This document shows, one piece after another, positions 1,327 through 44,766 of a DNA stretch of 51,412 nt. This stretch comes from a virus (Duplodnaviria; Caudoviricetes), in the IMG/VR virus record IMGVR_UViG_3300023073_000001, positions 1 to 51,412 of that record. The stretch is one strand, 5' to 3'. The notes under the pieces are model-generated. The model made no database searches. It worked only from the letters and a program-made list of their open reading frames with translations, and was not told the DNA's origin. Position 1 is the first letter of the stretch. Each line of letters opens with the position of its first letter. Made by a program: the position numbers and the translations under genes.

Positions 1327-2271
1327 TTAGAAGTCGTCGACGAACTTAATCTCGCCGGGGTCCTTGACTTTCTTCTTCTTCATGTCCTTGAAAGGCGGGC
1401 ACTTCTGGTCGATGAGATTATTTATAAGATAATCCAGACCTTCTTTGCAAGCCCTTTCTTCGGTGTTGAAGACACTCGTTCCTTCGGGACCGGGGAGGTA
1501 GTAGGCATTCTTGCCTTCAAGTTCTCCGTTCCCGAGATTGTAGGTACTCCCCAAGCACGAGCTTAGGAAGGATGCGTCCTTGTCGCAAGTCCAGGAAGCG
1601 AAGATAAGCTTCCTGAACATACTGACATGGCCGACACCATACGCAAGCCGTCCGATATCTACGGGCTGACCCGCAGACTTTACACGGACGGCAGTACAAG
1701 CAGAGTTGAGTTTGTCTCCACTGCCAAAGGACTTAGCCGTAGCGATGGCGATGACTTCGACTGCGAAGCCTCGAGCTTCGACCTGATCAACGATGGCAGC
1801 AACGACTGCAGCGCGATTGGTAATCGCATCTCCAGACGTCCCGCAGTTTGCTCCCATTGACGAGAGCAACGTTATGACAGGTTTTCGCTTCGAGAAAGCA
1901 CTATCCATCTGCTTCATATTCAAGATGTTACCACTGATTGCTCGAGGTACATCAGGAATAGCGCCGCAGATGCCGTACTTTACGGCCTTAGGAGCGACAG
2001 GATTGAGGGCATTGATGGTGTCCCTGATCTTCACGACCTTCGGAACACCTTCCTTCCAGCCCGTCTGAGCCAGATCAATAGCCTCGGCGAGCGTGCGACA
2101 GCCAGCCCAATCAGGACGATCATCTTCGAACCCCGCGTCAGCCCATGGTTTACCCTTGAAATCCTTCAAGAAGTCTCCAAGGCTCTCGGGAGATTTCCAG
2201 AAACTACCGAACCTCATCGGGGGCAGGTAGTCGGCTAGGGATTTTTCGTTCCCAACGATTACCCGTTCCAT
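1327..2271 (-). CDS. vWA/CobT-like partner of the MoxR-type AAA+ ATPase
   Basis: 314 aa, coupled to the ATPase stop; alpha/beta pattern PVITLLSSMGANCGTS...RAAVVAAIVDQVEARGFAVEVIA...VKSAGQP resembles phage vWA proteins. Confidence 0.6.
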   Translation of the reverse strand: MERVIVGNEKSLADYLPPMRFGSFWKSPESLGDFLKDFKGKPWADAGFEDDRPDWAGCRTLAEAIDLAQTGWKEGVPKVVKIRDTINALNPVAPKAVKYGICGAIPDVPRAISGNILNMKQMDSAFSKRKPVITLLSSMGANCGTSGDAITNRAAVVAAIVDQVEARGFAVEVIAIATAKSFGSGDKLNSACTAVRVKSAGQPVDIGRLAYGVGHVSMFRKLIFASWTCDKDASFLSSCLGSTYNLGNGELEGKNAYYLPGPEGTSVFNTEERACKEGLDYLINNLIDQKCPPFKDMKKKKVKDPGEIKFVDDF

Positions 2272-3278
2272 TACTTCACCTTCTTCTTGGCAGCACCGGT
2301 GAACATACCAGAAGCATTCTTCTCCAGCTTTTCGATGTTCATGGCGGCATACACACGATTGCGCAGCTCCATGTCAGTGCCCTTCCAGATCGTACGGTTC
2401 TCCACGACCTCCCAAGGCCAGCCGGCCTTCAGAAGCTTGGCACCGTAGATCGAGGCACGAGGACTGATGACGATACGGACGTTCTCCGCCATAGCCGCCT
2501 TGCGAACCTTCTGGACATACTCAGTCCACTTGACGTCGCCGGCAACCAGGAGTTCCAGCTTGGTATCGTACTGGAAGTCGATGAAGACGAACCGATCCAG
2601 CGTACTGGCGTCGAGCTGGTTAGCACCGACATACATCCGGTCAGCACCCTGACCAGTCGTATTGGCGGCAGCAATCACCCGGAAGTCCTTGTGCTTATAG
2701 AGAACATCAGGATGGTCCGGGAACATCGCGTAGCCATTGGCCAGTGCAGTGTTCATCCACTTGAGCGCGCCTGGATCGGACGAATCCATTTCGTCTACCA
2801 GGATCAGGCCGCCCTTCTCGAAGGCATCACGGAAAGAAGTCGGGATATACCGACCCTGTGCATCCATGTAGCCAGTCAGCTCATGGGCACCTGAGACCGC
2901 ATTCTGGAGGTAATACTTCAGCTTCAGGGCATCGGCCACCTGCTTGCAGATAGTCGACTTACCAGAGCCGGCCGGACCAATCAGAGCAACTGGGATGTTC
3001 TGATCCACCGCAGTCAGGACGTCCGGGAAGACGTAGTGACGGGGCTGGTCGGGCAGCAGGACGACATCATCGCCCTTCTTGAGTTCGAACTTGTTGAGGA
3101 CGTTCAGCTCCATGGCCATATCCTTGACCATCTGCTTGACTTCGTCCATCGTGGGGGAATTGATTGCCTTGCGCAGAAAAGCGAGGCTGTCCTTCTCGAG
3201 ATCAGGGACCTTCGGCACGTTCAGTGCATCCATGATCGACGTCGGCAGCGGGGGAGCGACAGCAGCGAAACCACTCAT
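2271..3278 (-). CDS. MoxR/CobS-like AAA+ ATPase
   Basis: Walker A GPAGSGKS, Walker B ILVDEMD, sensor AAANT, LDASTLDRF, ISPRA; strong RBS AAGGAGG. Confidence 0.9.
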   Translation of the reverse strand: MSGFAAVAPPLPTSIMDALNVPKVPDLEKDSLAFLRKAINSPTMDEVKQMVKDMAMELNVLNKFELKKGDDVVLLPDQPRHYVFPDVLTAVDQNIPVALIGPAGSGKSTICKQVADALKLKYYLQNAVSGAHELTGYMDAQGRYIPTSFRDAFEKGGLILVDEMDSSDPGALKWMNTALANGYAMFPDHPDVLYKHKDFRVIAAANTTGQGADRMYVGANQLDASTLDRFVFIDFQYDTKLELLVAGDVKWTEYVQKVRKAAMAENVRIVISPRASIYGAKLLKAGWPWEVVENRTIWKGTDMELRNRVYAAMNIEKLEKNASGMFTGAAKKKVK

Positions 3279-3304
3279 TGTAGCCTCCTTGAGGAGATCT
3301 TATA

Positions 3305-5043: not shown

Positions 5044-5296
5044 AATGATTTTTCTTTCTAAGTAAGAAGAGCTTCTTGGTCGGAGACTCAGCGACGTAGT
5101 GTTCTTCGCCCCAGCGCTCTGATCGAGGATAGAGCGTCAATGAGACGTTAAGAACGGTGTACATCTGGCCTTCGGGGAAGTCTTCGTTGTTGCTGTTAAG
5201 GACGAAGCCTTGGAGATGGTTGGTCTGAGGGATAATCCTCCACAGACGAAACTCACACTCAAAGACCATGGCGTCACGCTGCTTTAGCTTGGACAT
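5024..5296 (-). CDS. Hypothetical protein
   Basis: ORF bridging primase-helicase and ung; start uncertain. Confidence 0.55.
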   Translation of the reverse strand: MSKLKQRDAMVFECEFRLWRIIPQTNHLQGFVLNSNNEDFPEGQMYTVLNVSLTLYPRSERWGEEHYVAESPTKKLFLLRKKNHYDLSVV

Positions 5297-6830
5297 GAGG
5301 GTTCCAGTTGTCGTTGTCGGGTTCAATGAATTCAGACAAAGTATAAGTAACTGGATCGAAAAGTAATTCACCTGCTGGTCCTGTTCTTCCACAGAACCTA
5401 TTCTTTGAGATCATTAGATGCGTCGTTCGACGGACGACTGGATCGGGAGACTCGACATCACGAGACAGATCAATACGGATATCTGCTATCTTACTGATGT
5501 TACGGCTACCTCGGGTCAGACCGTCGTCGTTAACATGGCTAACAACGATCAACGCGAAGTCGAGCTCCTTCACCATCATCTCTAGTCGCGTCGAAAGATA
5601 GTCGAGCGAAGTCCGCTCATCCGATCCTCGAGCTCCAGAGACAACCATGGTAAGGTGGTCGAGCAGAATGTAACGACAACCGCGCGCGGATACCAGAAAT
5701 CGAATGGTATCGAGAATGACGTCAGGATCATCTGATCCAAAATGGCTATAGATGTGAAGACGCTCGTCCACCCTAACAACTTCTTGAACGGCCTTGAGTG
5801 TTTGTTCATGATCGACACCGCTGTCTGGCAGATGGACGGGAAGCTGGAGATGAATTCCCGCGATCGCTTGAAGATGACGACGCTTCGGCTCCTCAAGAAA
5901 GATAGCGCCGATAGGATCATCGGTTTCTTTAAGTAGCTGGTGTTCAATAGCATGCATCACCTCCGTCTTACCAATGCCCTCTTGGGCGGTTATAAGTACA
6001 CTCTCTCCGGTACGAATACCGTAGGTCATATAATTTAAGGTAGGAAAGGGGTAGGGGACGCCCTGACGAGGCGTCTCCCTGATGATCTTGTCGAACTCAC
6101 TGAACGAAGAGACTATGCTCTGCGGGAGGTATCTTCGCGCATTGGTCCAAATCGCTGCCAGTTCTCCATCCTCGCCGGCGGCGACGTAATCGTTGGCGTC
6201 TTTTCTGGCACCACCAGGGAAGGACACCATGTAAACCTTGTTGTAATCAAACAACTTTGCCACTTTAGATGCTGCTTGACGTCCTGCTTCATCCCCATCA
6301 AACGCAAGTATAATCTTTTCGAATGAGTTAAGCCAGGATCGGTCCAAGCCAGCGTCAGTCCCAGCACTAGAAGCACTGTGAACGCTGACGACAGGCGTGC
6401 GTACAGTCTGCCAAAGCGATAGAGCATCGAGTTCTCCCTCTGTGATAGTCACGGTTTTGTGACTGCTAGCCGCGAACTTATTACGACCAAATAAACCAGC
6501 TTTGGCTATATCACCCTGAGTATAGAAACCCTTTTTATCGAGAGTCCTGATCTTATAACTCCCATTAGGATACGGGAAGCCCATATCTTTAGGCTTACCA
6601 TCTGCCGCTATCCTAGTCTTTACGTCGTACTTCTGCATCGCTTCGCGTATAATTCCGCGTGATGACAGGTATTCGAAGGAATAATTCTCTAAGTCAGACA
6701 AAGTATTTCTCTCAGGAGGAGTGTATGTGAGACACGAAAAGCAATAACTGTGGCCGTCTTCGTAGACGCACTTGGCGTCAGACGAACCACAGTCATCACA
6801 AGCGATATGTTGTTCTACTATCTTACTCAT
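5274..6830 (-). CDS. T7 gp4-like DNA primase-helicase
   Basis: Zn finger CDDC...CFSC; TOPRIM TEGELDA and FDGDEAG; SF4 helicase motifs AQEGIGKT, LLDHL, VSHV, SKNRFCGRTG. Confidence 0.95.
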   Translation of the reverse strand: MSKIVEQHIACDDCGSSDAKCVYEDGHSYCFSCLTYTPPERNTLSDLENYSFEYLSSRGIIREAMQKYDVKTRIAADGKPKDMGFPYPNGSYKIRTLDKKGFYTQGDIAKAGLFGRNKFAASSHKTVTITEGELDALSLWQTVRTPVVSVHSASSAGTDAGLDRSWLNSFEKIILAFDGDEAGRQAASKVAKLFDYNKVYMVSFPGGARKDANDYVAAGEDGELAAIWTNARRYLPQSIVSSFSEFDKIIRETPRQGVPYPFPTLNYMTYGIRTGESVLITAQEGIGKTEVMHAIEHQLLKETDDPIGAIFLEEPKRRHLQAIAGIHLQLPVHLPDSGVDHEQTLKAVQEVVRVDERLHIYSHFGSDDPDVILDTIRFLVSARGCRYILLDHLTMVVSGARGSDERTSLDYLSTRLEMMVKELDFALIVVSHVNDDGLTRGSRNISKIADIRIDLSRDVESPDPVVRRTTHLMISKNRFCGRTGPAGELLFDPVTYTLSEFIEPDNDNWNPHVQAKAA

Positions 6831-9093: not shown

Positions 9094-9171
9094 GGTCTCT
9101 CTCTTCTGTTAGTGGGCGAATGCCCTGTGAAACAGCCTGCAAATGGCGCGTACGCCACCTGATGACAGGTT

Positions 9172-9807
9172 TTACGCTGTCTTTTTGTGCTTCCTGAGGA
9201 AGCGATCGCCGATGCCGACGAACTGAGGGATGACATTCTCACCGGGCTTACCACCCGGTATCTTGCCCTTCGGGCTGGCTTCATGCGTCTTGTTGGTCTT
9301 GACGCGATGAGCGATGGCCAGCTTGTTGTTCTTCCGACGCACTAGATCAGGCATGTCGAATAACTTGCCGACTCGTTCCAAGTATTCCCTGTATTCTTGA
9401 TCGGAAATAATCCCGAGAACACAGGCATCAAGGAAAGCATCACCAAGTATGTCCGCAAGAGCCCCTTGCTTCCATTTGGCCATCTTCTTCTCCATGTTCC
9501 TTACGGACCACCGACGATGAAGACGACGAACAGGAGCAAGAACACGATGCATCGGTCGCTGGATTAGCTTCCAATACAAAGGCCTGACCTTGTCACGCAG
9601 CCAACGCTGCCATACAGCCCGTAGCATCAAAGCCACCAAGCCGCACGCAATGATGGCTGCCCCGAAACCGTAGACGATCTCGGAATTCTCATACGCCCAC
9701 AGGCGGATGGCCTCATACGTAATGGACAGCCAGTGTCCAAGGATATACAGGATGCCAAGCACGAAGCCTGCGACATCCTGAAAGAACTCCCACATCTTAG
9801 CCGACAT
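9172..9807 (-). CDS. Membrane protein with two N-terminal hydrophobic helices
   Basis: 211 aa, hydrophobic segments near residues 12-30 and 44-64, coupled to upstream stop. Confidence 0.7.
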   Translation of the reverse strand: MSAKMWEFFQDVAGFVLGILYILGHWLSITYEAIRLWAYENSEIVYGFGAAIIACGLVALMLRAVWQRWLRDKVRPLYWKLIQRPMHRVLAPVRRLHRRWSVRNMEKKMAKWKQGALADILGDAFLDACVLGIISDQEYREYLERVGKLFDMPDLVRRKNNKLAIAHRVKTNKTHEASPKGKIPGGKPGENVIPQFVGIGDRFLRKHKKTA

Positions 9808-11261: not shown

Positions 11262-11290
11262 AGTATAGCTCCTGAGGGTTCTTACGTCAA
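11262..11290 (-). promoter_or_regulatory. sigma70-type promoter
   Basis: TTGACG, 17-nt spacer, TATACT. Confidence 0.75.
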
Positions 11291-11469: not shown

Positions 11470-11508
11470 ATCACCCTCCGAAAACCTGTCATCAATGCAT
11501 ATTAACGC

Positions 11509-13460: not shown

Positions 13461-13655
13461 CCTCACTTAGCCCGTAATACAAATGTCAGTAAGAATCAGA
13501 GTTATACCATATGAAATCATGGTCGCCACCATAAGACCTTAAACACATACATACACGCCTAGAAAAACCTGTCATCATGGGTATGTGTTGCATTTAGGAC
13601 ACACCTGTGGTATATCCAATACACACATACCGCACCGCAAAACCTGTCATCAGAC

Positions 13656-13708: not shown

Positions 13709-13720
13709 GTGGTAATTATG

Positions 13721-14005: not shown

Positions 14006-14098
14006 GTTAGTTCCCTCACCGTGCGGCCTGCCATTATGACAGGTTATCACACGCTAGAACCGGGCACGTATGCCCGGCTCAGGCTTGTGATAGAGGGA

Positions 14099-16686: not shown

Positions 16687-16700
16687 AGAATTCTCCTATG

Positions 16701-19431: not shown

Positions 19432-20156
19432 TGTTAGCTATACCTCAATCCACTACCAAGCTAGTTATGTTCAAGGCATACCTGTCATCAGACCATGTCA
19501 CAGAAGCAACTGGCAAGACTATCGCTATCACAATCAGTAAAAATGGAGGTGCATTCGGCAACCCCAGCGCTGGCGCGACTAACGCGACAGGCATATCCTC
19601 TGGTTGGTACTCAGTCTCGTTGAGTACAACAGACACAAATACACTAGGTCCTCTCGCTATCCGAGGGACAGAAGGAACCATCGATGATGTCGGAGTGCTT
19701 TTCGAAGTTGTCTCTGCAAGTACTGGCGGACTTACTAATCTTGACGCCACTGTTTCTTCTCGCATGGCTACTTATACTCAGCCTACAGGCTTTCTCGCGG
19801 CGACGTTCCCAGGCGGAACAATCGCAAACACAACTAACCAAACAGCGGGAACTGTCACTACAGTCTCCGGTAACGTCAACGGATCAGTAGGCAGTGTCAC
19901 TGGCGCAGTCGGTAGCGTAACAGGTTCGGTAGGTTCAGTCACAGGACTGACAGCCAGCAATCTCGACGCCACCGTATCTAGCCGGCTAGCTTCTGCAAGC
20001 TATACAGCTCCTGATAATGCAGGCATAACTGGCATCAAAGCCAAGACAGACAGCCTAAGCTTCACTGTAGCCAACAGAGTTGATTCTAATATCCGTGTTG
20101 TCAACGGTGTTACCGTAACCGGTACAGGTACTCTCGTAGATCCCTGGGGGCCGTAA
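19431..20156 (+). CDS. Putative virion fibre protein with GSV repeats
   Basis: VSGNVNGSVGSVTGAVGSVTGSVGSV; NLDATVSSR twice. Confidence 0.65.
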   Translation: MLAIPQSTTKLVMFKAYLSSDHVTEATGKTIAITISKNGGAFGNPSAGATNATGISSGWYSVSLSTTDTNTLGPLAIRGTEGTIDDVGVLFEVVSASTGGLTNLDATVSSRMATYTQPTGFLAATFPGGTIANTTNQTAGTVTTVSGNVNGSVGSVTGAVGSVTGSVGSVTGLTASNLDATVSSRLASASYTAPDNAGITGIKAKTDSLSFTVANRVDSNIRVVNGVTVTGTGTLVDPWGP

Positions 20157-23949: not shown

Positions 23950-24230
23950 TCTCAGCATGGACCAAAAACCTGTCATCGCAGGAAGATGCAGACAGATTCA
24001 AAAGACACTTGTTGTCTTCAAGAGCAATATTAGAGCGTCTACAGGAGCTTCTAGATGAAGAAAAGAATGCCCTGGACGCCGTAGAGATTAGTTCCAAGAC
24101 TTATGACTCGCCTAATTGGGGCTACCGCCAAGCACACAGCAATGGGTTCAAGGCCGGAATTAAGATGGTGAGCAACCTTATATACATTGACCCCAAGGAA
24201 TACGATGGCCGACAGCCTATTCAACAATGA
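23946..24230 (+). CDS. Hypothetical head-module protein
   Basis: 94 aa between portal and scaffold; YDSPNWGYRQAHSNG. Confidence 0.7.
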   Translation: MISAWTKNLSSQEDADRFKRHLLSSRAILERLQELLDEEKNALDAVEISSKTYDSPNWGYRQAHSNGFKAGIKMVSNLIYIDPKEYDGRQPIQQ

Positions 24231-30502: not shown

Positions 30503-30510
30503 GGACTAAC

Positions 30511-31477: not shown

Positions 31478-31878
31478 TGCTTAGCATCCTCAGCGTAATA
31501 CCTGTCATCGGTCCGATAATCCAATCGGTAGTAGATTTATTCGCCAAGAAGGCGGACGTAGATCTGCAGAAAACTCTTGATGCTAACCGTACTACGCTGG
31601 GCAAGCAAGTCGATCTGAACAAGACAGACGTCGCCATCATCCAGGCTCGTATGCAGCTAGCAATGGCTACACACGAAGACCTAGGCACCCGTATCATAAA
31701 AGATATGGTTATGTATGGCGTCTCCGTCTGGATGCTTGTTTACTTCTTCTGGTTGTCATTTAAGGGACTCCTCCCTGATTACTACTGGGAAGTAGGAACT
31801 CCTCCGGAGACTATGCAGTACATCCCGTACGCAATGATCGCCTATCTATTCGTTACAGCCTATCGAGGCAAAGCATGA
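31477..31878 (+). CDS. Putative three-TM holin-like protein
   Basis: Hydrophobic N-terminus plus two C-terminal TM helices, in the lysis cassette. Confidence 0.55.
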   Translation: MLSILSVIPVIGPIIQSVVDLFAKKADVDLQKTLDANRTTLGKQVDLNKTDVAIIQARMQLAMATHEDLGTRIIKDMVMYGVSVWMLVYFFWLSFKGLLPDYYWEVGTPPETMQYIPYAMIAYLFVTAYRGKA

Positions 31879-32747: not shown

Positions 32748-33034
32748 ACGATAGCGTAGTAAGAAGCACTGACCGTATTCTTAGTTTGGCAGTCATTGAC
32801 GGAGAGAAGCCTAAGTCCTCTACAGGTCTGGTTGATACCAGACTTTTTACTGGCGACCAACAGCTTCACCTCAAGATGGATTCCCAGAGTAGTTTATGGT
32901 ACTTCCAGTACTCCAACAATGGTGCACTGCCCCTCGCTTTGCAAGGACGATACACCGGCTTCAAAGCTGGCATTAAGTTTGCAGAGGAATACTTCCGCAA
33001 GCGAAACATTAAGATAACTGAAGTAAAAGACTAA
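32744..33034 (+). CDS. Hypothetical tail-module protein
   Basis: 96 aa; GALPLALQGRYT; coupled on both sides. Confidence 0.7.
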   Translation: MNDSVVRSTDRILSLAVIDGEKPKSSTGLVDTRLFTGDQQLHLKMDSQSSLWYFQYSNNGALPLALQGRYTGFKAGIKFAEEYFRKRNIKITEVKD

Positions 33035-35373
33035 TGGCTCAACAGACCGCCTCTACGGTTGAGAACAATTTCAGTAAGGGTTTAATTACTGAAAACACTG
33101 GACTCAACTTCCCAGAGAACGCAGCTACCGATACCGACAACTGTGAATACACTCTTATAGGCAACGTCCTACGTCGTCTCGGTATTGACTTCGAAGAAAA
33201 CTTTGAAGAGCAAGACCTTGGCAGTCGAATTAACTCTGCAGTCTCTATGTATAAGTGGAAGAATGCTGGAGGCGATGGCAATACTCAAGTAGTTGTCGTC
33301 CAAGTCGGTGCGACTCTATATTTCTACTCTCTCTCTGAAGCCACTCAAACCGCTCCTTTATCAACACAACGTCTCGTAGCTACCGTCAATCAAGCAGACT
33401 TCGTAGCTAGTGGTGGTACGATGGATACGACTGTCGAGAATACATACTCAGACGGTAATGGATATCTCTTCGTATTCAACAGCTGCTGTGAGCCTATCTA
33501 CTGTTCTTACAACGGTGGTGCGGTGACTGCCTCTGCCATCAACATTCAGATCCGAGATTTTGTAGGCATACCGGAGGCTACTCCTGTAAGCGCTCGACCT
33601 ACATCTCTTTCAGCTGTCCATAAGTATAATCTAGGCAACCAAGGCTGGACTACCAAGAGCGCATGGGGTGTCGACTCTCCAGATACGACTTCCATTAATT
33701 CTCTCGGCCCGAAAACTATTAACGTAGGCACTGTCGCAGGTATAACTCTAGGCGATACGGTTTACGGATACTCTAACGCAATCTACTGGTACCCCGGTGG
33801 TCCCGTCCAGTATGGAAGCGGAACCGTAGTCTTCGGCGGAACAGTTACCGCTTACTCCGATCCTTTTCTGACAATTAACATCACGAGTTGTAGTGGTTTC
33901 GGTTATCCTACGTTATTCACCTTCATCATCTACCAAACCAACGAAGGCTTCATCGACGCATGGCTTGCTTCACAGGGTAACTACCCTAGTAACGCAGACG
34001 TCTGGTGGTACTTCAAGAATGCTTCAGGAGTATTCGATCCTGCTACTACGCAGCCTAACGTATCTTTATCCGCAGGTAACGCCCCTCAAGGCCACTACAT
34101 TATATCTGCCTTCAATCAAGACAGAGGATCAGTATCTGGTATAGCTGGGCTAAGCCCCGTCAAGACAAGTATTCGACCTAGTAACGGAGCTTGGTTTCAA
34201 GGACGTATATGGTATACAGGTGTCAACACAAGTAGTCCACCTGATACTATGAACCCATTCTACTCTTGGTCTGAGAATATATACTTCTCCCAAGTCAACG
34301 TAGGCACAGCAGTTAACTTCGGTAACTGTCACCAAGTCAACGATCCTACGTCAGAGAACCTATTCGATCTCTTACCTACAGATGGTGGAGTAATACAAAT
34401 CCAAGGCTGTGGAAGGATAGATAAACTCTTCCCTGTCCAGAACGGTATGCTCGTATTCGCTGCCAATGGCGTCTGGTTCATTACTGGTAGTCAAGGTATC
34501 GGCTTTACTGCCAGCGACTATACGATTACTAAGCTGAGCTCTATTGAGTCTTTGTCTCCGTACTCTTACGTAGATGTCGTAGGTATGCCTTACTTCTGGA
34601 ATGAAGAAGGGATCTATACTGTCCAACCTCAGCAAGGCGGCTCACTGTCTGTTGAGAGTATTACAGTAACTACAATAGATAGTTTCTACGCAGAGATACC
34701 TAAGCAAAGTAAGAAGTACGCTAAGGGTGCTTATGATCCCATCGAGTACAGAATACAATGGCTCTATAAGTCTGAGGAAGAAGATGACGTCTTAGATCGT
34801 TACTCTTACGACCGTATAATGAATTACAGCACAGTCAACAAAGCTTTCTATCCTTACTCGATAGATAACTCTGGGACTAGTATTAATTCTATCTTGTATG
34901 TTCAAGGCCCTGGAGGTTCGACTTCGCCTGAACCAGGCATGAAATACCTGTCATCACACCCTTCGGTGACTTCATACGCCTATTCCTTCGCTGAAGAATT
35001 TGATGAAGATTACGTCGACTGGGCTTCGGTAGATCCGGTTAATTACGACAGCTACTTCGTTACAGGCTATAAGATCAGAGGCCAAGGTATTCGGAAGTTC
35101 CAACCCCAGTACGTTCAAGTGTATTCCAACAGTGATACCTCGACTGGATATAAGATACAAGGATTGTGGAACTACGCTAACTCTGGTAACTCAGGTAAGT
35201 GGACTTCTCCACAAACTGTCATTAACGCATTAGGTCGTTTTAACGTCACCGCTAGACGGCACAAGATCAGAGGTTCTGGTTATGTCCTTCAGTATAAGGT
35301 AACTTCTCTACAGGGAATGCCATTCGATATCATCGGCTGGGCTACCGTCGATACAATTAATCAAGGTACATAA
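33034..35373 (+). CDS. Tail tubular protein B (nozzle)
   Basis: 779 aa beta-rich; NNFSKGLITE, RRLGIDFE, WFQGRIWY, IYFSQ, LLPTDGGVI. Confidence 0.8.
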   Translation: MAQQTASTVENNFSKGLITENTGLNFPENAATDTDNCEYTLIGNVLRRLGIDFEENFEEQDLGSRINSAVSMYKWKNAGGDGNTQVVVVQVGATLYFYSLSEATQTAPLSTQRLVATVNQADFVASGGTMDTTVENTYSDGNGYLFVFNSCCEPIYCSYNGGAVTASAINIQIRDFVGIPEATPVSARPTSLSAVHKYNLGNQGWTTKSAWGVDSPDTTSINSLGPKTINVGTVAGITLGDTVYGYSNAIYWYPGGPVQYGSGTVVFGGTVTAYSDPFLTINITSCSGFGYPTLFTFIIYQTNEGFIDAWLASQGNYPSNADVWWYFKNASGVFDPATTQPNVSLSAGNAPQGHYIISAFNQDRGSVSGIAGLSPVKTSIRPSNGAWFQGRIWYTGVNTSSPPDTMNPFYSWSENIYFSQVNVGTAVNFGNCHQVNDPTSENLFDLLPTDGGVIQIQGCGRIDKLFPVQNGMLVFAANGVWFITGSQGIGFTASDYTITKLSSIESLSPYSYVDVVGMPYFWNEEGIYTVQPQQGGSLSVESITVTTIDSFYAEIPKQSKKYAKGAYDPIEYRIQWLYKSEEEDDVLDRYSYDRIMNYSTVNKAFYPYSIDNSGTSINSILYVQGPGGSTSPEPGMKYLSSHPSVTSYAYSFAEEFDEDYVDWASVDPVNYDSYFVTGYKIRGQGIRKFQPQYVQVYSNSDTSTGYKIQGLWNYANSGNSGKWTSPQTVINALGRFNVTARRHKIRGSGYVLQYKVTSLQGMPFDIIGWATVDTINQGT

Positions 35374-35880: not shown

Positions 35881-35881
35881 T

Positions 35882-38800
35882 ATGGAACCAATTACACTAG
35901 CTCCCGAGACTACCCCCCTTCCGACTACAGGGCTTGCTCCCATAACTAATGCTCCCTCTGATCCTCTTCCCCCTGCGCAAGCAGGCAAGCGGGCGGAAAA
36001 GGCTGAGATGGGACTCAGCACCGTCACTGGTGATCCCTATAAGGAAATGTACGCTAAGATCGCTTCCGGTCAGGAGGATGATCTGCGTCGTAATGCTGCA
36101 AGCAAGATTGACTTCGAACGCAGCATGGCTAGAGACCAAGCGCTGACAGACTGGGCTGCCAAGAAAGGTGCGCCTCTTACTATCGACGAAGCCATCCGTG
36201 TCATCGACCCCTTTACTCGTAATGGCACCACAGACCCCAGGGATGTCATCGAGAGAGCATACTCTGAGAAGTATGTCTCTTCAGCTAATACTGCTGCGTC
36301 TTATATGAAGGGTAACAACGTTCTTGAACAAGGTATCCTAGAACTCCCAGAGACTACTGCTAAGGTTCAGGAGAAAGCCAGTGAAGTCAATACTCGCTTC
36401 GAGTTACTCCGCTCTCTTAAGGAGAATGCTGAGAACGACCTATCCAATCAAGGAACTCTTCCTTGGATAGCTGACCAAGCCAAGATGATGATCCAGCCGT
36501 ATAATGAATACATGATGCGGGGTCTCAATCCTGAGGTTGGTAAAATCTCCGGTGGTGTCCTTCTTGGTGAGAACATCAAAGAACAAGCTGACAGGCTGTG
36601 GGATCTTCCGTATTCTAAGATGAAGGAAGGGTTGTTCAATATCAAAGAACAGCTCAAGAGCAATCCCAGTTTGTGGAATCAGTTCCTCGATTACATGACT
36701 GCTCCTAATACGAGACAGCGTGTCCTCGATAACATCTTCACGGCTATCATGCCGGCAGACTACGCCGCTTTAGCTAAGACTCCTTCGCTTCTCCGTAAGG
36801 TTGAGCTTAATAACAGAGTCAACAAAGCCTTTAAGGATGTCGTAGCTTCCAGTGCTAACGTCGGCAAGGAACTTCCTGCTAAGGCTGTGGCTGAAGAAGC
36901 TTCAGGTAATGTCGCTCAAGCTGGTATCACCAGAGCTACTGAGAACATCACTAAGACGCTCGACGGCACTCTCAATCCTGTTCAAGACATTAAAGAAAAG
37001 ATGACGTCTAACTTCAAGTTAGATGGTGACGTCTTTGATACTAACGCCGGCAGTGGTTATCTCTCCCGAGAGACCCTGACCCGTATGAAGGATGCTTTCT
37101 ACAGCCGTGGCAACAACCTCTACGAAACTATTACTAATGCTCTTCGCGTCAATCGTACTCCGATACCGCTGGCTACGGAGGACGCACTTAAGGCGTACCA
37201 AGTCGCAGCCAGGAATGACTTCCCAGGGCTAGACAATTCAATACTAGATATCTCTTCTCCTATACTAGAACCTGCTACCAATACTCACCATGTTGCATTT
37301 ACATTTGGCAACCGAGATGGTCGGTTATTTAGTTCAGTTGAGAAAGCTAAAGCGTACGCGATGGATAACGGCTTTGCCGAACCTCGCGTCGTTAAGGCAG
37401 AAGGTACAGTAGAAGTCGAAGCCGCTAGGTTCCAAGGCAAGGCTGATGACATCAGGACGAAGGAAAGACTAGAGAAGTCTATCCCTAAGACTGAGCAGTT
37501 AGTCGCCCGTGAACGCGCTAAGGCATACAATAAGACACTGGCTAAGGAAGTCAGAGACGCTGCACGTGAGCAGTTCAAGCTTGCTAAAGAATTCCTTAAG
37601 GAAGAAAAGGCTAAGCTGGCAGACGTCAACACCCGTGTAACTCTTGGCGAACCTGTCATCGAACAGAACGGTGTGGGCTTCAGCTTCAAGGTTGTCCGTC
37701 CCTATAAGGAGACAGACGACGTCGTTCGGAAGTGGCTAATCAATAAAGATGAAGGTGGAAAGTTCTATGGCGAAGGCGCTTCGACTGCATCACAGACAGG
37801 CTTCCCAAGCTGGAAGAATTCAATACTTGGATGGATACGCGGTGCCGACGATACCCTTGCATTTAATGAAAGCCTGCAGAGAAAGACTGCTGTCTACACT
37901 CAAAGCCTCCTCAGAGAGTGGGCCAAGGATGACGCACAGTTAATCGAGAACCTCGCTAATAAGTTTAAGTGGTATAAGCCACAGAGTTGGCTCGGAAAGG
38001 TCTTCACTAATAAGGAAGTCTTCGAGCAATGGAATGACACACTGAAGTTCGCTAAGACCAGGCCTGATCCTGCGACTGGTGAGCTTGGATCATTCTTTAA
38101 AACACCAGGTGATCTCGAAGATCACTATCAACGGTGGTATCAACGTTCACCTTCTGTTCCTGAAGTCGAGGCATACTTTGCCCACGTCAGGTTGATAGAA
38201 GCTGATCGTGTCCTGTCTGAGATCGCTGAGTTCCGTAACCGCAGTAGGTTAGGCACTGAGCAGCATCAGATATACGTACAGCAAGGGAATACCAGAGTAG
38301 CTTCAGGCTTCTTTGATGGAATACACCAGCAAGAGTTCCCCAGAGGTGATGACAATGTCATCGTGATGGGTGGACGACTGGGTGAAGAAAAGATCCATAA
38401 CCTTCAGCATATTCCAACGAAGGAACGTCAGAAGCTCGAGCAGGCTGTTCGAGAAGGGCGTCAAAGAGTTATTCGAATCTACGATCCCGATAGCAATCCT
38501 TTGAAGAGTATGTCAGACATCGCAGGGAGTAAAAGAATCCGCTATGTCATTACCAATACTTCGGAGAGTAAGCCGTTGGACTTCAACCACGTCAACAGAC
38601 GGGGTGGTGGTCACTTCGACGTCGACGCAGACTTCTTCATTAAACAAGCAAATATGGTTGATGAGTCTACCGGCTTGTATCCTGATCTTGCTAGCAAGTT
38701 TCGCCGTATTTACCGCGGCGATACTACACTGATGCCTATTGCCAATCGAAAGATGGGCACAGACATCATAGCTAGGATGAACAGAGTTAACAAGTACATG

Positions 38801-41173
38801 GCCGCTGGCCAAGAGGATCTTGCTCAAAAAGAAGCAGGACCGTTAGGCATTGACTGGGATGAAATGTCTTCCTGGTATAAGCCTTCCCGTGATAAGAACG
38901 GAAAGGTAGTAGAACCACGGATTAATCCTAATGAACCCTTCTACGTTGTCTCGCGCAACAAAAAGATATTTGATATCGACAAGAGCCTTGAAGAGAGACA
39001 TGGAGGACTCTTCAAAGACGGAACGAAATCGGGAAGCGATGCCCTTCAGTTTAAGGTGGCTTATAATGAAGTTCGTGACTCCGGTAACCTCAAGACTATC
39101 CGAGACGAAGGGACACAAGGCAATCCGTTATATAAGTACGTTCCTGCTGATTATGTCGATCCTATTCCTACTATGAACCGTGCTCTCAACAGAGCAATCA
39201 ATTCTACCTTCATGGATGACTATAAGATCTATGCAGTCGAACACTGGCTGACTGAAGCTATCCCCCACCTCAAGGCGAGTGAGAGTGAGGTAAGGAGTTC
39301 TCCTTTCTACCACTTCAACACAGCTTCGGATAAAGGCGCATTCAAACCTGATACTCCAGAGGCAGTTCGATGGAACCTTCTGTCTAACCGCTATAAGATC
39401 AATCAGTTCGTTGGTACTCCTTCCGCTATGGATACAGCTACCCATGGATTGACACAGCTGCTCGCTGATAAGTTCTATGAGAAGTTTGGTCCTGAAGCTA
39501 CCCGAGGGCTGGCTGCTAAGACGGTTACTCTCGTCCCGCTGTGGATGCTAGACAAGGTTAAGGAGCCTGTGTCTGCTATCCGTAGTTTCGCTTTCAATGC
39601 CAAGCTCGGTGTCTTCGCTCTGCCACAGTTTATTGTGCAGGCTCAGACTTATACGACTATCTTCGCACTTAATCCCAAGCAAGCTATGGCTGGGACTTAT
39701 GCTTACATGCTGCACAGCTGGGGTCGTATCAACGGTCACCCCGAAGTCATCGCAGCTATGGATCGTTACGCCAGTAAGATGAAACTCTTCGGCAGTAACT
39801 GGAAGCCTGGTGAATGGGCTGAAGCTCGTCGTGAGCTAGCTAGAACTGGGTTCGAGAATGTCGGAGGCGAACATGCTATCGCTGACGACGCAATGCAATA
39901 TAAAACAATTAAGAACGAGTGGAATAATTTCCTCTCCGCAGGACAAGTATTCTTTAGAGAGGGTGAGAAAGCTTCGCGTATTGGAGCCTACTATACCGCC
40001 TTCAAAGAGTTCAGGGATGCTAATCCAGTAAAGGTAATTACTGATGCAGACCGACAAAGAATACTCCAAAAAGCTGACCTCCTTACTGTCAATATGTCTC
40101 GCGCTAGTAGTAGTGCTCTTCACGGCGGCGTTCTATCTCTTACTACTCAGTTTCTATCTTACCAGCTTCGAATGGCCGAGCTATTCTTCGGTAAGCGAAT
40201 TGGTGAAACGACTACTGAGCGAACCCTAGCTAGGGCTAGGTTGATGACGATGTATGCTGCTATGTACGGCGCACCGTCTGCTTTGGGCATCACTGGCTAT
40301 CCCTTCGGTGACTCTATTAGAGAACATGCTATTACGAATGGCTACCAAGTAGGTGACAAATACCTGTCATCACTGCTTATGGAAGGCATCCCCGCGATGT
40401 CACTAGCGATGATAACAGGCAAGGGAGACTTCCAGAAGGGGAACTTCTACAACATAGGTGACCGCTATGGTTCGCAAGGATTTACGCAAATTAGAGAGTC
40501 CCTCCGTACTGACAAGACTATGTGGTCTATCTTTGGTGGTGCTGGTGCTAGCTCTATTATTAATACTATCGCTAACCTTGATCCCTTTTGGAAAGCTGCT
40601 AAGCATCTTATGAGTGATGACGAAGAAGGCAATACCTTCAAGCTGAAGGTCAATGACTTCGTCAATCTATTCAATGAAGTGTCTACGGTGGATGCTACCA
40701 CACGTTGGTATCGAGCTTTGAATACAGGACGGTGGATTACTAAGAATGGCCAGTACGTCGATGACGTCTCGGCTAGCAATGCCACCTTTATGGCCATGAT
40801 CACCGGTACTAAGCCACAAGCACAAGACGATATCTTCGCAGTCCGGAATATCAGTAAGGCTGAGAAGGCTATCTGGGATAGAGCCCAGAAGGCTATTACT
40901 CAAGACTACCAACGTGGTATCGAAGCAGCTGACAACAACGATCCAGACTCAGCTAATGATTACTTCAACCGTGTCCGTGCTCGTATGATCATCGACAACG
41001 TCCCACTGGATAAGCGAGCAGAAATCCTGGCTAAAGCCAGTGCTGGCTATGAAAAAGCAATTGATACTTCCCAGCGTTACTGGGCTACTAAGGGTGCACC
41101 TGCTGGTCAGGAAGCTGATCGTCTCGATAGCTACACTAGGTATCTTCAACTTCAAGATAAGAGAATGCAATAA
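35882..41173 (+). CDS. Large internal virion (ejection) protein
   Basis: 1763 aa, helical, in the ejectosome position; no catalytic motif recognised. Confidence 0.7.
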   Translation: MEPITLAPETTPLPTTGLAPITNAPSDPLPPAQAGKRAEKAEMGLSTVTGDPYKEMYAKIASGQEDDLRRNAASKIDFERSMARDQALTDWAAKKGAPLTIDEAIRVIDPFTRNGTTDPRDVIERAYSEKYVSSANTAASYMKGNNVLEQGILELPETTAKVQEKASEVNTRFELLRSLKENAENDLSNQGTLPWIADQAKMMIQPYNEYMMRGLNPEVGKISGGVLLGENIKEQADRLWDLPYSKMKEGLFNIKEQLKSNPSLWNQFLDYMTAPNTRQRVLDNIFTAIMPADYAALAKTPSLLRKVELNNRVNKAFKDVVASSANVGKELPAKAVAEEASGNVAQAGITRATENITKTLDGTLNPVQDIKEKMTSNFKLDGDVFDTNAGSGYLSRETLTRMKDAFYSRGNNLYETITNALRVNRTPIPLATEDALKAYQVAARNDFPGLDNSILDISSPILEPATNTHHVAFTFGNRDGRLFSSVEKAKAYAMDNGFAEPRVVKAEGTVEVEAARFQGKADDIRTKERLEKSIPKTEQLVARERAKAYNKTLAKEVRDAAREQFKLAKEFLKEEKAKLADVNTRVTLGEPVIEQNGVGFSFKVVRPYKETDDVVRKWLINKDEGGKFYGEGASTASQTGFPSWKNSILGWIRGADDTLAFNESLQRKTAVYTQSLLREWAKDDAQLIENLANKFKWYKPQSWLGKVFTNKEVFEQWNDTLKFAKTRPDPATGELGSFFKTPGDLEDHYQRWYQRSPSVPEVEAYFAHVRLIEADRVLSEIAEFRNRSRLGTEQHQIYVQQGNTRVASGFFDGIHQQEFPRGDDNVIVMGGRLGEEKIHNLQHIPTKERQKLEQAVREGRQRVIRIYDPDSNPLKSMSDIAGSKRIRYVITNTSESKPLDFNHVNRRGGGHFDVDADFFIKQANMVDESTGLYPDLASKFRRIYRGDTTLMPIANRKMGTDIIARMNRVNKYMAAGQEDLAQKEAGPLGIDWDEMSSWYKPSRDKNGKVVEPRINPNEPFYVVSRNKKIFDIDKSLEERHGGLFKDGTKSGSDALQFKVAYNEVRDSGNLKTIRDEGTQGNPLYKYVPADYVDPIPTMNRALNRAINSTFMDDYKIYAVEHWLTEAIPHLKASESEVRSSPFYHFNTASDKGAFKPDTPEAVRWNLLSNRYKINQFVGTPSAMDTATHGLTQLLADKFYEKFGPEATRGLAAKTVTLVPLWMLDKVKEPVSAIRSFAFNAKLGVFALPQFIVQAQTYTTIFALNPKQAMAGTYAYMLHSWGRINGHPEVIAAMDRYASKMKLFGSNWKPGEWAEARRELARTGFENVGGEHAIADDAMQYKTIKNEWNNFLSAGQVFFREGEKASRIGAYYTAFKEFRDANPVKVITDADRQRILQKADLLTVNMSRASSSALHGGVLSLTTQFLSYQLRMAELFFGKRIGETTTERTLARARLMTMYAAMYGAPSALGITGYPFGDSIREHAITNGYQVGDKYLSSLLMEGIPAMSLAMITGKGDFQKGNFYNIGDRYGSQGFTQIRESLRTDKTMWSIFGGAGASSIINTIANLDPFWKAAKHLMSDDEEGNTFKLKVNDFVNLFNEVSTVDATTRWYRALNTGRWITKNGQYVDDVSASNATFMAMITGTKPQAQDDIFAVRNISKAEKAIWDRAQKAITQDYQRGIEAADNNDPDSANDYFNRVRARMIIDNVPLDKRAEILAKASAGYEKAIDTSQRYWATKGAPAGQEADRLDSYTRYLQLQDKRMQ

Positions 41174-43356
41174 TGGCCACTTTTGCTCCGCAAGTAGCAC
41201 CGACGAATGACCCTAACTATCTGAACTACTCCCGTCCTATTAGTGACATCTCCGGTGATAAATCACAAGGGATGCTTCTGAAGGGCATCGGAGAGGCGAT
41301 AGAAGGTGCTGCAGCTGTCGGAGATCAGATCTTCAAGAGTATCATCAACGACGAAGTCCGTACTGGTGTCGACAAACAACGTGATGCCTTTACATCCGCT
41401 CTCGTTCAAACTGCAGATGCCCAAGCTGGAGCTGGATTGATTCCAACCCCACAGGGGCAAGCAGTCGCTGGTGTTAGAGCTCCTTCACTAGCTGATGGTG
41501 AAGAGTCCCTTCCTGCTGGTGTCAAGGCTGGTGTCGCTAAGGCCCAGGCTATTGGTACTGCTATGACGCAGAATAGTGGTAAAGCTAATGATACTCTCTA
41601 CACCGGTGCTCTCACCGCTCTGACTAAAGAGCTGCGTAGTAAGTATCCAGGTTATAGAGATTACATCGACAACAAGATCTCTGAGGTCTCAGGTATCAAT
41701 CCTGCTAACGCTTATATGCGTAACCTCCTAGAGGATATCAATCGTAACGCTACGAGTGGTAAGGCAGAGACTGAGAAAGCTATCGCGCTCGGTCGCCAAT
41801 ACCTCGGCTATGATCCTAACATGCCTGCGTACATCGAGGCAGTCCGTCAGGGCTTGCCTGGGAGTATCCAGAACCTCGAGTCCCGTATCAACCGAGTGGC
41901 AAGTGATAAGCCTAAGTTCGATGAACTCGAACGTCAACGTAAGCTACGTGACTGGCGTAAGGAAGACGATACTACTGATCAGTCTGTCCAGTTCGGTAAA
42001 GAAATCCGTAGTAAGGCAACTCTTGCTTGGCAAGGTGTTGTAGAAATTCCTGGTCTTAACAACCCCACTACTATTCAGAAGCTCTTAGATGATCAACGTG
42101 CAGGTCGTATAAACCTCACTGATGAGCAGAATGGTGCTCTTCTACAAGCAGCGACTCTAGCGAAGGATACCTGGCAACGACAGTCTGTAGAGATCATGCG
42201 TAACCGTGGCTATACTCAGAGCATTCCTAAGAAGGAACAGCGGGATCAAATCCTTGCTGACGAGGGACGTTTCTTTGATGATCAGATCGATGCTATTAAG
42301 AATAAAGAATATGGAACAATGTTCGGTAATCAACGTCGAGTAGCTTCCATACAGAATGATACCTCAGTCTCTCTTCTCACTGATAAGAACATGGGAACAT
42401 ATACCAGACTGATGGATGGTGCCCGACGTCACGGTGGAGATGCTTGGGTTAACTTCATGCAGGCTGAGGCGCTAAAGGCTGGTGTCACCGGCAACCTCAA
42501 AGATTTCGCACAGGATGTCAAACTCAAGATTGGTACTCCCGTCGATCCACGTTTCCCTCAGGATACTCGTTCAATCTACGAAGACGTCAAGAAGGCTCAG
42601 GACGCTAATATCCCTCCTCAGAGTAAGATCTACGACGACCTCATCGGTAACGTCAAACTGTTAACTCTTCCTAGTGCTCCCAAGGGAGTTGATGAGAAAC
42701 AGTTCTTTAACGTCAAGAAGAATATCATCGACTATATGTATGATCCTGCCAAGAATGGTAAACTAATGGATCGCTTCAGTCGAGACTTCGTTGATGCCGA
42801 TGGTGTACGCCATCCCGGTAAGTTCGCAGTCTATGACGTTCTGACTAATCGCGGTAACGTCGACAAGATCTGGGAGATGAAGGACAGAGATAGTTGGCAG
42901 AAGTACAGAGACTTCAATGAACTCTCCTTCCGCAAGCTATTCTCAGAAGAACTAGGTGTTCTTAACCAGACAGCTAATGCTCCTGTCAAGGTAATCTGGA
43001 ATTCGGATACTAAACAATTCACAGTCGAGCGTGAGAAGCCTACAGGGATGTCTTCTTCTGAAGCTGCCCTTCTGGCTAGGAATCCTGCAAGTGATAAAGC
43101 CTTCAAGCAGATGCAAGAAGGTGTGATGCGGTTGAATAGAGGTCTATCCAATCTGTCTTACATGCATGACAAAGAAGGCATGGATACTAATGCCTACCTG
43201 ATGGATACGATGATGCAGATGGGATACTCACCCAATGATCGTCTCCGTGGTAACAACCTTCCGCAGAAGGTAATCGAAGCCATAGCTAACAGCAAGAAGA
43301 AGGAACTCCAGAACGATCTCGAGGCAGCCTTTGAAGCAACTAAGGGCAAGAAGTAA
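41173..43356 (+). CDS. Internal virion protein
   Basis: 727 aa, coupled to the preceding gene. Confidence 0.65.
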   Translation: MATFAPQVAPTNDPNYLNYSRPISDISGDKSQGMLLKGIGEAIEGAAAVGDQIFKSIINDEVRTGVDKQRDAFTSALVQTADAQAGAGLIPTPQGQAVAGVRAPSLADGEESLPAGVKAGVAKAQAIGTAMTQNSGKANDTLYTGALTALTKELRSKYPGYRDYIDNKISEVSGINPANAYMRNLLEDINRNATSGKAETEKAIALGRQYLGYDPNMPAYIEAVRQGLPGSIQNLESRINRVASDKPKFDELERQRKLRDWRKEDDTTDQSVQFGKEIRSKATLAWQGVVEIPGLNNPTTIQKLLDDQRAGRINLTDEQNGALLQAATLAKDTWQRQSVEIMRNRGYTQSIPKKEQRDQILADEGRFFDDQIDAIKNKEYGTMFGNQRRVASIQNDTSVSLLTDKNMGTYTRLMDGARRHGGDAWVNFMQAEALKAGVTGNLKDFAQDVKLKIGTPVDPRFPQDTRSIYEDVKKAQDANIPPQSKIYDDLIGNVKLLTLPSAPKGVDEKQFFNVKKNIIDYMYDPAKNGKLMDRFSRDFVDADGVRHPGKFAVYDVLTNRGNVDKIWEMKDRDSWQKYRDFNELSFRKLFSEELGVLNQTANAPVKVIWNSDTKQFTVEREKPTGMSSSEAALLARNPASDKAFKQMQEGVMRLNRGLSNLSYMHDKEGMDTNAYLMDTMMQMGYSPNDRLRGNNLPQKVIEAIANSKKKELQNDLEAAFEATKGKK

Positions 43357-44729
43357 TGCCTATCGGCACCTCTGACGGCGAATTCTTTGAAGACAGGTGG
43401 GACTACACAGTCCGGGCAGCCTTTCCGGTTGGTCTGACTCGTGTGCCTATTACCAAGGATGATCCTATGGTAGTCCCGCCTCCTGAGGATGGTGACTACG
43501 GAATGGTCGTCGATCCTTTCGTCATGCAGCAGAATAAGAAGCTCGATGATGTCGAAGTCGATCCTGAGGTTGGACTAGGACTAGAGATCAGTGCTGAAGG
43601 GCCTCCACAAGCCCCTACAAAGCCCACTGGTGCGTTAAAACAAGACGAAGGTGGGAAAGGCTTCTTCGACCGTCTAAGCATAGTCAATCCTATCTCAGCG
43701 ATGCTGAAAGGGCCTAACTTTGAAGAAGACATCGCTATCGCTAAAGGACTGTGGGGCAGTGTAAAATCTGCCTTTACTCTACCAGGCCAAGTAGCTCGAG
43801 GAGAAGTCGATCCTTCCAGCGTAGAGGCTGTCAGACGTAGTATAGACTTGGCTGGCATTGCCGTCCTAGGTCCTGCCCCTGTCGCCTCTAAACTAGCCGA
43901 CGGAACACTCGGTTCTTTCATCGGAGTTAAGGCTAAGACTTTCGACAAAGAAAGACTCGCAGAAGCTCAGAGGATGGCTAATAAAAATGCCACTGGAGAT
44001 GAGATCTGGGAGAAGACACAGACATTCAAGGGAGCCGACGGACGATGGCGTCAAGAAGTGCCAGACAATACCGCTATAGTCAAAGGAGCTGCAGAACAAG
44101 GGAAGCTTAAACCTCTATCTGAAGTATACGACCATCCTGAACTATACAAAGCTTACCCAGATTTAAAGGATCTTCCTGTCGCTGCTTTCGAAGACCTCGG
44201 CCCTAATCAATTCGGAAGAGCTGCATACGATCCTAGTAACGATGTCGCCTACGTAGGTAAGAATGCTACCGTCGATGACTTTGTCCATGAGATTCAACAC
44301 GCTATTCAAGTACGAGAGGGATTCGCTAAGGGAGGGACTGTCGCTGCTGAGTTCGCTCTCCGATTCGAAGAAGAAGTCCGAAAGGCTGCCATACAATCTT
44401 TAGACCTTGTGAAGAAGTTTAAAGAACGTGGTCTAAGTGAAGCAGAGATGGCGATTCTGAAAAAGAATGAAAGACTCCTACAGGTGGATCTTCTCCGCAA
44501 GCAACTGGCAGCTGCCGAAGCTGAAAGCCATTACATGAGACTGGCTGGTGAGGTCGAAGCTAGGAATGTAGAGACTCGTGGAGGACTGACTAACAAACAA
44601 CTCCGTGAGTATGCTCCATATTGGACTCAAGATACTCCATCTCAAAGGCAAATAGTCAGTGATAAAAGCATATATGCTACACCGTACGGGGTAACAGACA
44701 ACCCAATGATTGCTCCAGACTACCCCTAA
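43356..44729 (+). CDS. Polyvalent-type protein with LPD23-like domain and zincin metallopeptidase
   Basis: IWEKTQTFKGADGRWRQEVPD; HPELYKAYPDL; HEIQHAIQVREGFAKGG (HExxH); YMRLAGEVEARNV. Confidence 0.75.
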   Translation: MPIGTSDGEFFEDRWDYTVRAAFPVGLTRVPITKDDPMVVPPPEDGDYGMVVDPFVMQQNKKLDDVEVDPEVGLGLEISAEGPPQAPTKPTGALKQDEGGKGFFDRLSIVNPISAMLKGPNFEEDIAIAKGLWGSVKSAFTLPGQVARGEVDPSSVEAVRRSIDLAGIAVLGPAPVASKLADGTLGSFIGVKAKTFDKERLAEAQRMANKNATGDEIWEKTQTFKGADGRWRQEVPDNTAIVKGAAEQGKLKPLSEVYDHPELYKAYPDLKDLPVAAFEDLGPNQFGRAAYDPSNDVAYVGKNATVDDFVHEIQHAIQVREGFAKGGTVAAEFALRFEEEVRKAAIQSLDLVKKFKERGLSEAEMAILKKNERLLQVDLLRKQLAAAEAESHYMRLAGEVEARNVETRGGLTNKQLREYAPYWTQDTPSQRQIVSDKSIYATPYGVTDNPMIAPDYP

Positions 44730-44766
44730 AACCTGTCATCAATCGACTAATTCTTATTTAGACACT

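Follow-up and report, generated by a model that had tools for sequence, protein, structure and literature searches.

The IMG/VR virus record IMGVR_UViG_3300023073_000001, analysed here over its whole length of 51,412 bases (the window; G000 in comparisons with relatives), is a complete 51-kb podovirus genome with a completeness estimate of 100% and is a distant relative of the Zobellviridae. It carries 14 copies of a short asymmetric word, ACCTGTCAT, ten on the plus strand and four on the minus strand. What is such a word for? The genes around it are arranged in two arms, divergent at ~16.7 kb and convergent at ~44.8 kb; AT skew turns at 16,702 and 44,790, doing no more than mirror these gene-strand switches. 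The leftward arm holds small early genes, an NYN-domain gene (11567-12109; Pfam E 8e-28), a T7-type primase/helicase, a UDG-like gene, an AAA ATPase, a Cas4-like exonuclease, an endonuclease VII gene and a DNA polymerase A gene spanning the window ends; the rightward arm holds terminase, portal, capsid, tail and internal virion proteins (Pfam, PHROGs). The portal protein is at most ~47% identical (about 45-47%) to those of Lentibacter phage ICBM2, Vibrio phage ICP2, Salinivibrio phage CW02, Citrobacter phage CVT22 and Pseudomonas phage O4, and the records of CVT22 and O4 are classed under Zobellviridae. The two window ends share a repeat of 127 bases, a length typical of an assembler k-mer on a circular path.

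An earlier note on this DNA had placed 14 copies of the motif by eye, and all are found at the places and on the strands it gave: the 9-mer starts at 1874, 6662, 9162 and 14036 on the minus strand and at 11484, 13567, 13642, 19480, 23968, 31500, 34946, 37651, 40362 and 44731 on the plus strand (Table 1). Twelve extend to the full 10-mer ACCTGTCATC, whereas 100 dinucleotide shuffles average 0.16 and reach 2 at most, which bears out the large excess over chance claimed for it. The motif is the top k-mer of the genome at k=9 to 14; it extends from about -5 to +10 with the consensus S-N-A-A-W-ACCTGTCAT-C-A, amounts to ~25 bits and has no second block. Seven one-mismatch variants were found, which is not above chance (with one mismatch allowed there are 21 matches, and 10.85 are expected). 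Within genes the word falls in two reading phases, 1 and 2. Coding copies number nine; 1000 synonymous-codon shuffles averaged 0.52 and never exceeded 3. Eleven of the 14 copies run with the local gene direction and the three opposed copies are intergenic; all nine copies within open reading frames (ORFs) lie on the sense strand, five of them within the first 10% of the ORF. A TAA stop codon directly adjoins the A-rich 5' extension of the motif at 9162 and 44731. The two reading frames, the orientation counts and the two stop-codon copies are thus as the earlier note described them. The codon shuffle, together with the conservation in relatives described below, supports selection on the motif as DNA, as that note had proposed.

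Table 1. Motif copies in the window and the two genes considered as readers of the motif
Feature	Position	Strand	Context and state in relative G001
Copy, ACCTGTCAT then A	1874..1882	minus	Sense strand of gene 1327-2271 (DUF7192); exact in G001
10-mer copy	6661..6670	minus	~160 nt into primase/helicase gene 5274-6830, sense; exact in G001
10-mer copy, intergenic	9161..9170	minus	Just past TAA of gene 9172-9807, 69 nt before gene 7567-9093; 9-mer kept in G001
10-mer copy, intergenic, opposed to flanking genes	11484..11493	plus	Within inverted repeat CTGTCA-N18-TGACAG
Tandem pair, copy 1, intergenic	13567..13576	plus	75 nt from copy 2; ACCTATCAT in G001
Tandem pair, copy 2	13642..13651	plus	15 nt before bidirectional terminator hairpin; exact in G001
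Copy, 9-mer then A	14036..14044	minus	Between terminator-like hairpin and Shine-Dalgarno + ATG (14008) of small gene; kept in G001, diverged flanks
10-mer copy	19480..19489	plus	49 nt into gene 19431-20156, in accessory block absent from G001
10-mer copy	23968..23977	plus	22 nt into gene 23946-24230, just past portal gene; exact in G001
10-mer copy	31500..31509	plus	23 nt into gene 31477-31878; exact in G001
10-mer copy	34946..34955	plus	In tail gene 33034-35373, segment not aligning with G001
10-mer copy	37651..37660	plus	In gene of 1763-aa internal virion protein; exact in G001
10-mer copy	40362..40371	plus	In gene of 1763-aa internal virion protein; TCCTGTCAT in G001
10-mer copy	44731..44740	plus	Directly past stop of last late gene, 37 nt before bidirectional terminator
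Gene of 91-aa basic protein, candidate HNH-like nickase	45343..45618	minus	Invariant ELDHxGxHRxGSL...ANRxRQP
T7-type primase/helicase gene, alternative candidate reader	5274..6830	minus	phrog_239, E 3.9e-132

That the motif would recur in related phages is confirmed by comparison with ten relatives (G001-G010), which makes 11 genomes in all. The IMG/VR relative G001 (50,687 bases) aligns with 79% of the window at ~80% nucleotide identity. Among the 12 copies that can be aligned, ten are kept there without change, compared with 24% of all aligned 9-mers (P=2.7e-5); the two others are one base off, and the remaining two of the 14 fall in segments absent from G001. At 11484, 14036 and 44731 the copy stands out as a conserved island amid diverged DNA. 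An exact 14-mer search of IMG/VR matched at least 119 stretches, nearly all of them single chance matches, and among the matches listed only G001 had it twice. A portal search gave 61 related loci. The exact word is limited to G000 and G001, and variants of its core, CCTRTCAY, recur across the metagenomic family with lineage-specific flanks: G003 has nine copies of ACCTATCA, eight of them on one strand, and seven of AAACCTATCA (0.10 expected); G004 has five of AAACCTRTCA, all on one strand; G002 has eight of (T/A)CCTATCAY, four per strand; TTCCTGTCAY is present in G006, and G007 and G010 have a few orthologous copies in common.

Three positions are fixed over long distances: the copy past the last late gene, the tandem pair, and the 11484-type copy, which has positional counterparts in G003 and G004. 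The first of these, 44731 in the window, is the most widely conserved in the family, with CCTRTCAY there in eight of the 11 genomes (G000-G006 and G009). The tandem pair is found in seven genomes with a spacing of 44-88 nt and a CA-rich alternating tract before each copy; in the window such a purine/pyrimidine tract lies directly 5' of the 13567 copy. In-gene copies turn over between lineages, and G000 and G003 have few positions in common. One of these is ~25 nt into the same small gene, 31477-31878 in the window, whose G003 ortholog carries its copy 26 nt in, over other codons. All 12 sequencing runs are soil, litter or rhizosphere DNA in contig form, with no RNA run listed. Contigs from four runs are ~200-800 nt long at a depth of 2-5, with ends too dense to be related to motif copies, and no motif change occurs among the 40 listed of 93 contig differences.

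The core is also present in two cultured phages. Sinorhizobium phage phiM6 has nine copies of ACCTGTCAY on the minus strand and none on the plus strand, with none in a reversed control; by our reading of its annotation, all nine run along the genes of the leftward arm, seven of them inside annotated genes, and the late arm has none. Citrobacter phage CVT22 has the variant rAATGCTATCAY, and its nine copies of GCTATCA are all on the minus strand, the sense strand of the early/middle arm, all inside genes of that arm, with none in the late arm. No enriched CTRTCAY-type word was found in Pseudomonas phage O4. A limited search of the phage literature, supplements not included, found no mention of ACCTGTCAT, and the words 'nick', 'motif' and 'repeat' do not occur in the phiM6 genome announcement.

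What known phage signal does this resemble? In the packaged DNA of Pseudomonas phage tf the top strand alone is nicked, at 14 places with the sequence TACT/RTGMC, and the nicks can be ligated; single substitutions at three other positions go without nicks (Glukhov et al. 2012, PMC3517423). LUZ24 and PaP3 have mainly TACTATGAC in place of the TACTGTGAC of tf (PMC3517423), and phage Rembedalsseter has 13 nanopore-verified breaks at WACTRTGAC, again in one strand (Dougherty et al. 2025, PMC11780129). Several nicks in the tf record fall on a gene start or a little way into the gene. Like the tf/LUZ24/Bruynoghevirus-like Pseudomonas podoviruses, the phage studied here has an asymmetric 9-10-nt word, far above chance, at 9-14 copies per 45-51-kb genome. 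The tf-type motif and the present one have in common a CTRT core followed by an A two positions on, and the same position toggles between G and A, separating tf from LUZ24 and PaP3 on one side and G000 from G003, G002 and CVT22 on the other. In both, degenerate copies are essentially absent, relatives retain the motif in lineage variants and at positions that are partly kept, and copies occur within genes as well as outside them, frequently at the starts of genes and mainly on the coding strand. The genomes of tf and G000 also have in common a T7-type primase/helicase and DNA polymerase A, and no other common protein was detected.

In the light of these likenesses, the likeliest reading, which we hold at about even odds, is that the motif marks programmed nick sites, ACCT/RTCAY, akin to those of tf and LUZ24 but with a new variant of the sequence and in phage lineages new to such sites. 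The motif would then be the recognition sequence of a phage-encoded, strand-specific DNA nicking system, and packaged DNA would carry ligatable single-strand interruptions at ACCT/RTCAY on the motif-bearing strand, as at TACT/RTGMC in tf; ten nicks are predicted for the plus strand and four for the minus strand. On the tf model those of the plus strand would fall between 11487/8, 13570/1, 13645/6, 19483/4, 23971/2, 31503/4, 34949/50, 37654/5, 40365/6 and 44734/5, and those of the minus strand between 1879/8, 6667/6, 9167/6 and 14041/0. The mostly sense-strand orientation would suit, speculatively, a nick-primed or nick-tolerant replication that is co-directional with transcription. Among the functions that the earlier note had listed for the motif, the nick site has gained most, by analogy, from the core, copy number, G/A toggle and gene-start and coding-strand bias shared with tf and Rembedalsseter; an operator, also on that list, is unlikely because the word is asymmetric and 8-9 of its 14 copies are inside genes. 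Programmed, sequence-linked single-strand interruptions of packaged DNA also occur in phiKMV-like phages and in T5, where they are dispensable (PMC3517423). As far as that source describes them, these differ from the present motif in having an unrelated consensus and fewer sites, four to five of them major, all on one strand; the gene sets of these phages are unrelated to that of G000, save that the phiKMV group has general T7-like replication genes. That nick sites might be copied from the terminus-cutting site is not supported for tf, whose genome ends have no resemblance to its nick motif.

Which protein might read the motif? According to the two nick papers, programmed nicks have no agreed function, and no nicking enzyme has been identified in the LUZ24-like group (PMC3517423, PMC11780129). 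The putative nickase proposed here is the conserved HNH-like protein of 91 amino acids (aa) encoded near the convergence of the arms (Table 1). It is present in all ten relatives at 53-93% identity, matches CVT22 gp21, annotated as a 'putative endonuclease' (E 2e-13), and matches the phiM6 ORF SmphiM6_46 (E 3e-30, 53% identity), its only match in INPHARED; D49, H50 and N72 are invariant, with HH in place of DH in phiM6. A search of O4, whose genome has no enriched motif, gave no homolog. In IMG/VR, 328 stretches encode a homolog. An AlphaFold (AF2) model with a predicted local distance difference test (pLDDT) score of 67 has two helices followed by a strand (46-50), a second strand (64-68) and a helix (69-75) with the conserved His and Asn. 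When this model was compared with 48,161 chains by VIA-align, the best two matches were small HNH nicking endonucleases, Geobacter Gme HNH (4h9d) and phage GVE2 HNH (5h0o), at Z scores of only 3.3 and 3.2. They are of similar size and have a strand-strand-helix core with conserved His/Asn, although the root-mean-square deviation is 6-8 Å and the 91-aa gene is not adjacent to the terminase gene. Pfam, PDB-sequence and Foldseek searches with the protein gave no match, or in Foldseek no significant one. The HNH assignment is a lead rather than a result. The T7-type primase/helicase may be an alternative reader of the motif: the phiM6 enzyme is the closest found to that of G000 (39% identity, compared with ~26% for others), and the primase/helicase co-varies with the motif equally well as the 91-aa protein does. 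A 343-aa early protein (14099-15130, minus strand) encoded beside the tandem motif region was also considered as an initiator or nickase; its AF2 model has a pLDDT of 80, Foldseek returned no match at E < 0.47, and VIA-align gave only helical-hairpin matches (Z up to 6.2).

Several observations weigh against programmed nicking. The words of G000 and tf are identical at five of nine positions, possibly by chance. The proven nick systems use one strand only, whereas the window has copies on both strands, ten and four; copies are confined to one strand in phiM6 (9/0), CVT22 (9/0) and G004 (5/0), and nearly so in G003 (8/1). Nicks have been demonstrated in tf-type phages, whereas the G000 motif is known from low-depth soil metagenome contigs alone. 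No homolog of the 91-aa protein was detected in tf, the HNH assignment draws on a sequence motif, a pLDDT-67 model and Z scores of ~3, and across 80 IMG/VR loci with a homolog CCTRTCAY is not enriched overall (30 and 66 per strand, compared with 63 and 55 in reversed controls). Finally, the copies at 14036 and 9162 look promoter-like, in a genome whose late arm has few sigma70-like promoters. The phages also differ in other respects: the head/tail module of G000 is Zobellviridae-like, unlike that of tf, and places it outside the tf/LUZ24-like gene-content cluster, and, unlike in tf-type phages, a few intergenic copies (the one past the last late gene and the tandem pair) are fixed in position in its family.

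The promoter-like copies lead to a different explanation, in which the motif is a phage-specific promoter or transcription signal of middle and late genes, a single block without a -35 element that host RNA polymerase would use together with an unrecognised phage factor, much as the late promoters of T4 combine a single-block element with a phage factor. The 11 copies that point with genes would suit this, as would the order of elements at 14036 (terminator hairpin, motif, Shine-Dalgarno sequence, ATG) and at 9162 (stop codon, motif, gene 69 nt on), but an upstream layout, which fits at these two, does not fit at 19480, 23968 and 31500, which sit 22-49 nt inside the genes they should drive, or at 11484, 13567 and 13642, which are opposed to the flanking genes. 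The late-arm copies precede the scaffold/capsid, tail and internal-protein modules, in an arm whose plus strand has only two sigma70-like matches at 10/12 (16701 and 21011; 17 in total, compared with a shuffle mean of 22.9), yet no copy follows the strong terminator at 26458, and all copies of CVT22 and seven of nine in phiM6 are in genes, with neither late arm having any. The R=A variant contains TATCAT, five-sixths of a -10 hexamer, and the replication promoters of T7 resemble the tandem pair and the copy past the last gene. The promoters of T7-like phage RNA polymerases are in fact similar in copy number, are co-oriented with genes and include a tandem pair at an origin-like region and a copy past the last gene; the G000 motif differs from them in being shorter, in having several copies just inside genes and in that no phage RNA polymerase gene was found. 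Pfam and PHROGs gave no RNA polymerase or sigma factor among ~90 ORFs, many of them unannotated, and a profile comparison (hhalign) of 36 proteins of the window with the sigma factors of CVT22 and O4 reached a best probability of 0.7%. The primase gene of G004 contains a copy in antisense orientation, and G002 and G005-G010 have nearly the same genes with few or no extra copies. We regard the promoter explanation as unlikely, though a credible one. In a variant that was rejected, the reverse complement of the motif would be the -35 of antisense sigma70 promoters; the position table has no -10 at the right spacing.

Replication offers another role, which could coexist with nicking: the motif may be a high-affinity start or loading site of the T7-type primase/helicase, or an origin element, with the tandem-pair region at 13.5-13.7 kb as the origin. 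The primase/helicase and the DNA polymerase are the only proteins common to G000, tf, CVT22 and phiM6, and phiM6, with the closest primase/helicase, carries the identical word, but the relatives with three to five copies have too few to prime a whole lagging strand. A T7-type primase needs a GTC-like trinucleotide, and the variable R of the motif lies inside it. The tandem pair, with its CA-rich tracts, hairpins and TGCAAC/GTTGCA repeats, keeps its position in seven genomes, and plus copies lie to the right and minus copies to the left of ~12-14 kb, which would put the motif on the lagging-strand template of diverging forks; however, the copies of CVT22 and phiM6 are on one arm only, and the cumulative GC skew of the window has no origin signal. 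On balance we find a replication signal rather doubtful. An action in RNA is very improbable. On this view polycistronic mRNAs would be processed or bound at the motif, for instance by the NYN-domain nuclease, and it would agree with the sense orientation of all nine ORF copies in the window, with the many copies near cistron boundaries and with the presence of the NYN-domain gene. That gene was not detected in G007, G008 and G010, however, the best-conserved copies (11484, 13567 and 13642) are antisense to the flanking genes, G004 has its antisense in-gene copy, and Rfam and transfer RNA scans of the window gave no match. A host-directed signal, Chi-like or of the uptake type, would likewise be an oriented, over-represented word, but phages whose hosts are unrelated (Sinorhizobium, Citrobacter and soil hosts) have the core in common, its flanks vary with the phage lineage, and 14-16 nt is long for such a signal; we give this explanation hardly any credence.

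Programmed nicks in phage DNA have been known since T5, and a nick-type reading of the motif would extend such signals, with a different word, to a large soil podovirus family, to the HMO-2011-like rhizobiophage phiM6 and to the Zobellviridae phage CVT22. It also names a small candidate nuclease and two cultured phages, phiM6 and CVT22, in which the prediction can be tested. Nicks at motif words would truncate native nanopore reads on one strand and affect library preparation. A more far-reaching conjecture, to which we attach a low probability, is that proteins of the 91-aa type (~80-90 aa, ELDH...ANR) are the site-specific nickases behind localized nicks and read CCTRTCAY in a large, mostly uncultured group of ~50-kb podoviruses as well as in phiM6 and CVT22. 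The fixed copies, namely the one past the last late gene and the tandem pair next to the early control region, would then be sites of nick-primed replication or concatemer processing, and the extra copies a lineage-specific spread of the same signal. If this were true, the 50-year-old question of what phage nicks are for would become testable genetically in cultured phages.

Some further features adjoin individual motif copies. Codon 65 of the primase/helicase gene (6636-6638, minus strand) is an in-frame ATG 23 nt after the copy at 6662; the short, helicase-only form of the T7 protein starts from an internal codon at a similar place. The antisense copy of G004 is in the same region of the primase gene, on the other strand. 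TGCAAC/GTTGCA inverted repeats and GTGCAGTGCA-like repeats adjoin the tandem pair at 13655-13710 and in the corresponding regions of G002, G003, G005 and G009, and the tandem-pair regions also contain a conserved block of ~17 nt, in opposite orientations in different genomes. Downstream of the last late gene (44741-44805 and equivalents), all 11 genomes have a TAGACAY-type word, then an A-run and a terminator hairpin, even where there is no motif copy. The leftward promoters at 11281-11290 and 13451-13460 (minus strand) have a common extended -35 context, GGTTGAC(C/G)TAAG, and each is ~110-200 nt from an opposed motif copy.

Other observations concern the comparison phages and the rest of the window. 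At 14 places in 28006-42897, CVT22 has TCATTCTCCA (gene strand TGGAGAATGA) at gene junctions; this sequence, in which a stop codon overlaps a ribosome-binding site, has no relation to the nick-type motif. An amidoligase/glutamine amidotransferase/ATP-grasp cluster lies upstream of the primase/helicase in CVT22, O4, tf and phiM6, and was not detected in G000. The gene at 7567-9093 (minus strand) encodes a 508-aa protein with no family match and a proline-rich middle, and in its family consensus RRFFS ends both the mid-protein part and the C-terminus; the ESM Atlas had no match for this protein or for one of 378 aa, and a PDB sequence search with three large virion proteins found none either. 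The AT-skew and gene-strand switch at 16690-16745 has back-to-back, near-consensus sigma70-like promoters (11/12 and 10/12 matches), strong and divergent at 16701 on the plus strand and 16738 on the minus strand, and is probably the early control region. The three-gene block at 18043-20536, with a motif copy of its own at 19480, is missing from G001, and in one metagenome contig of run X3 position 18042 is joined straight to 20537; the block looks like an accessory insertion.

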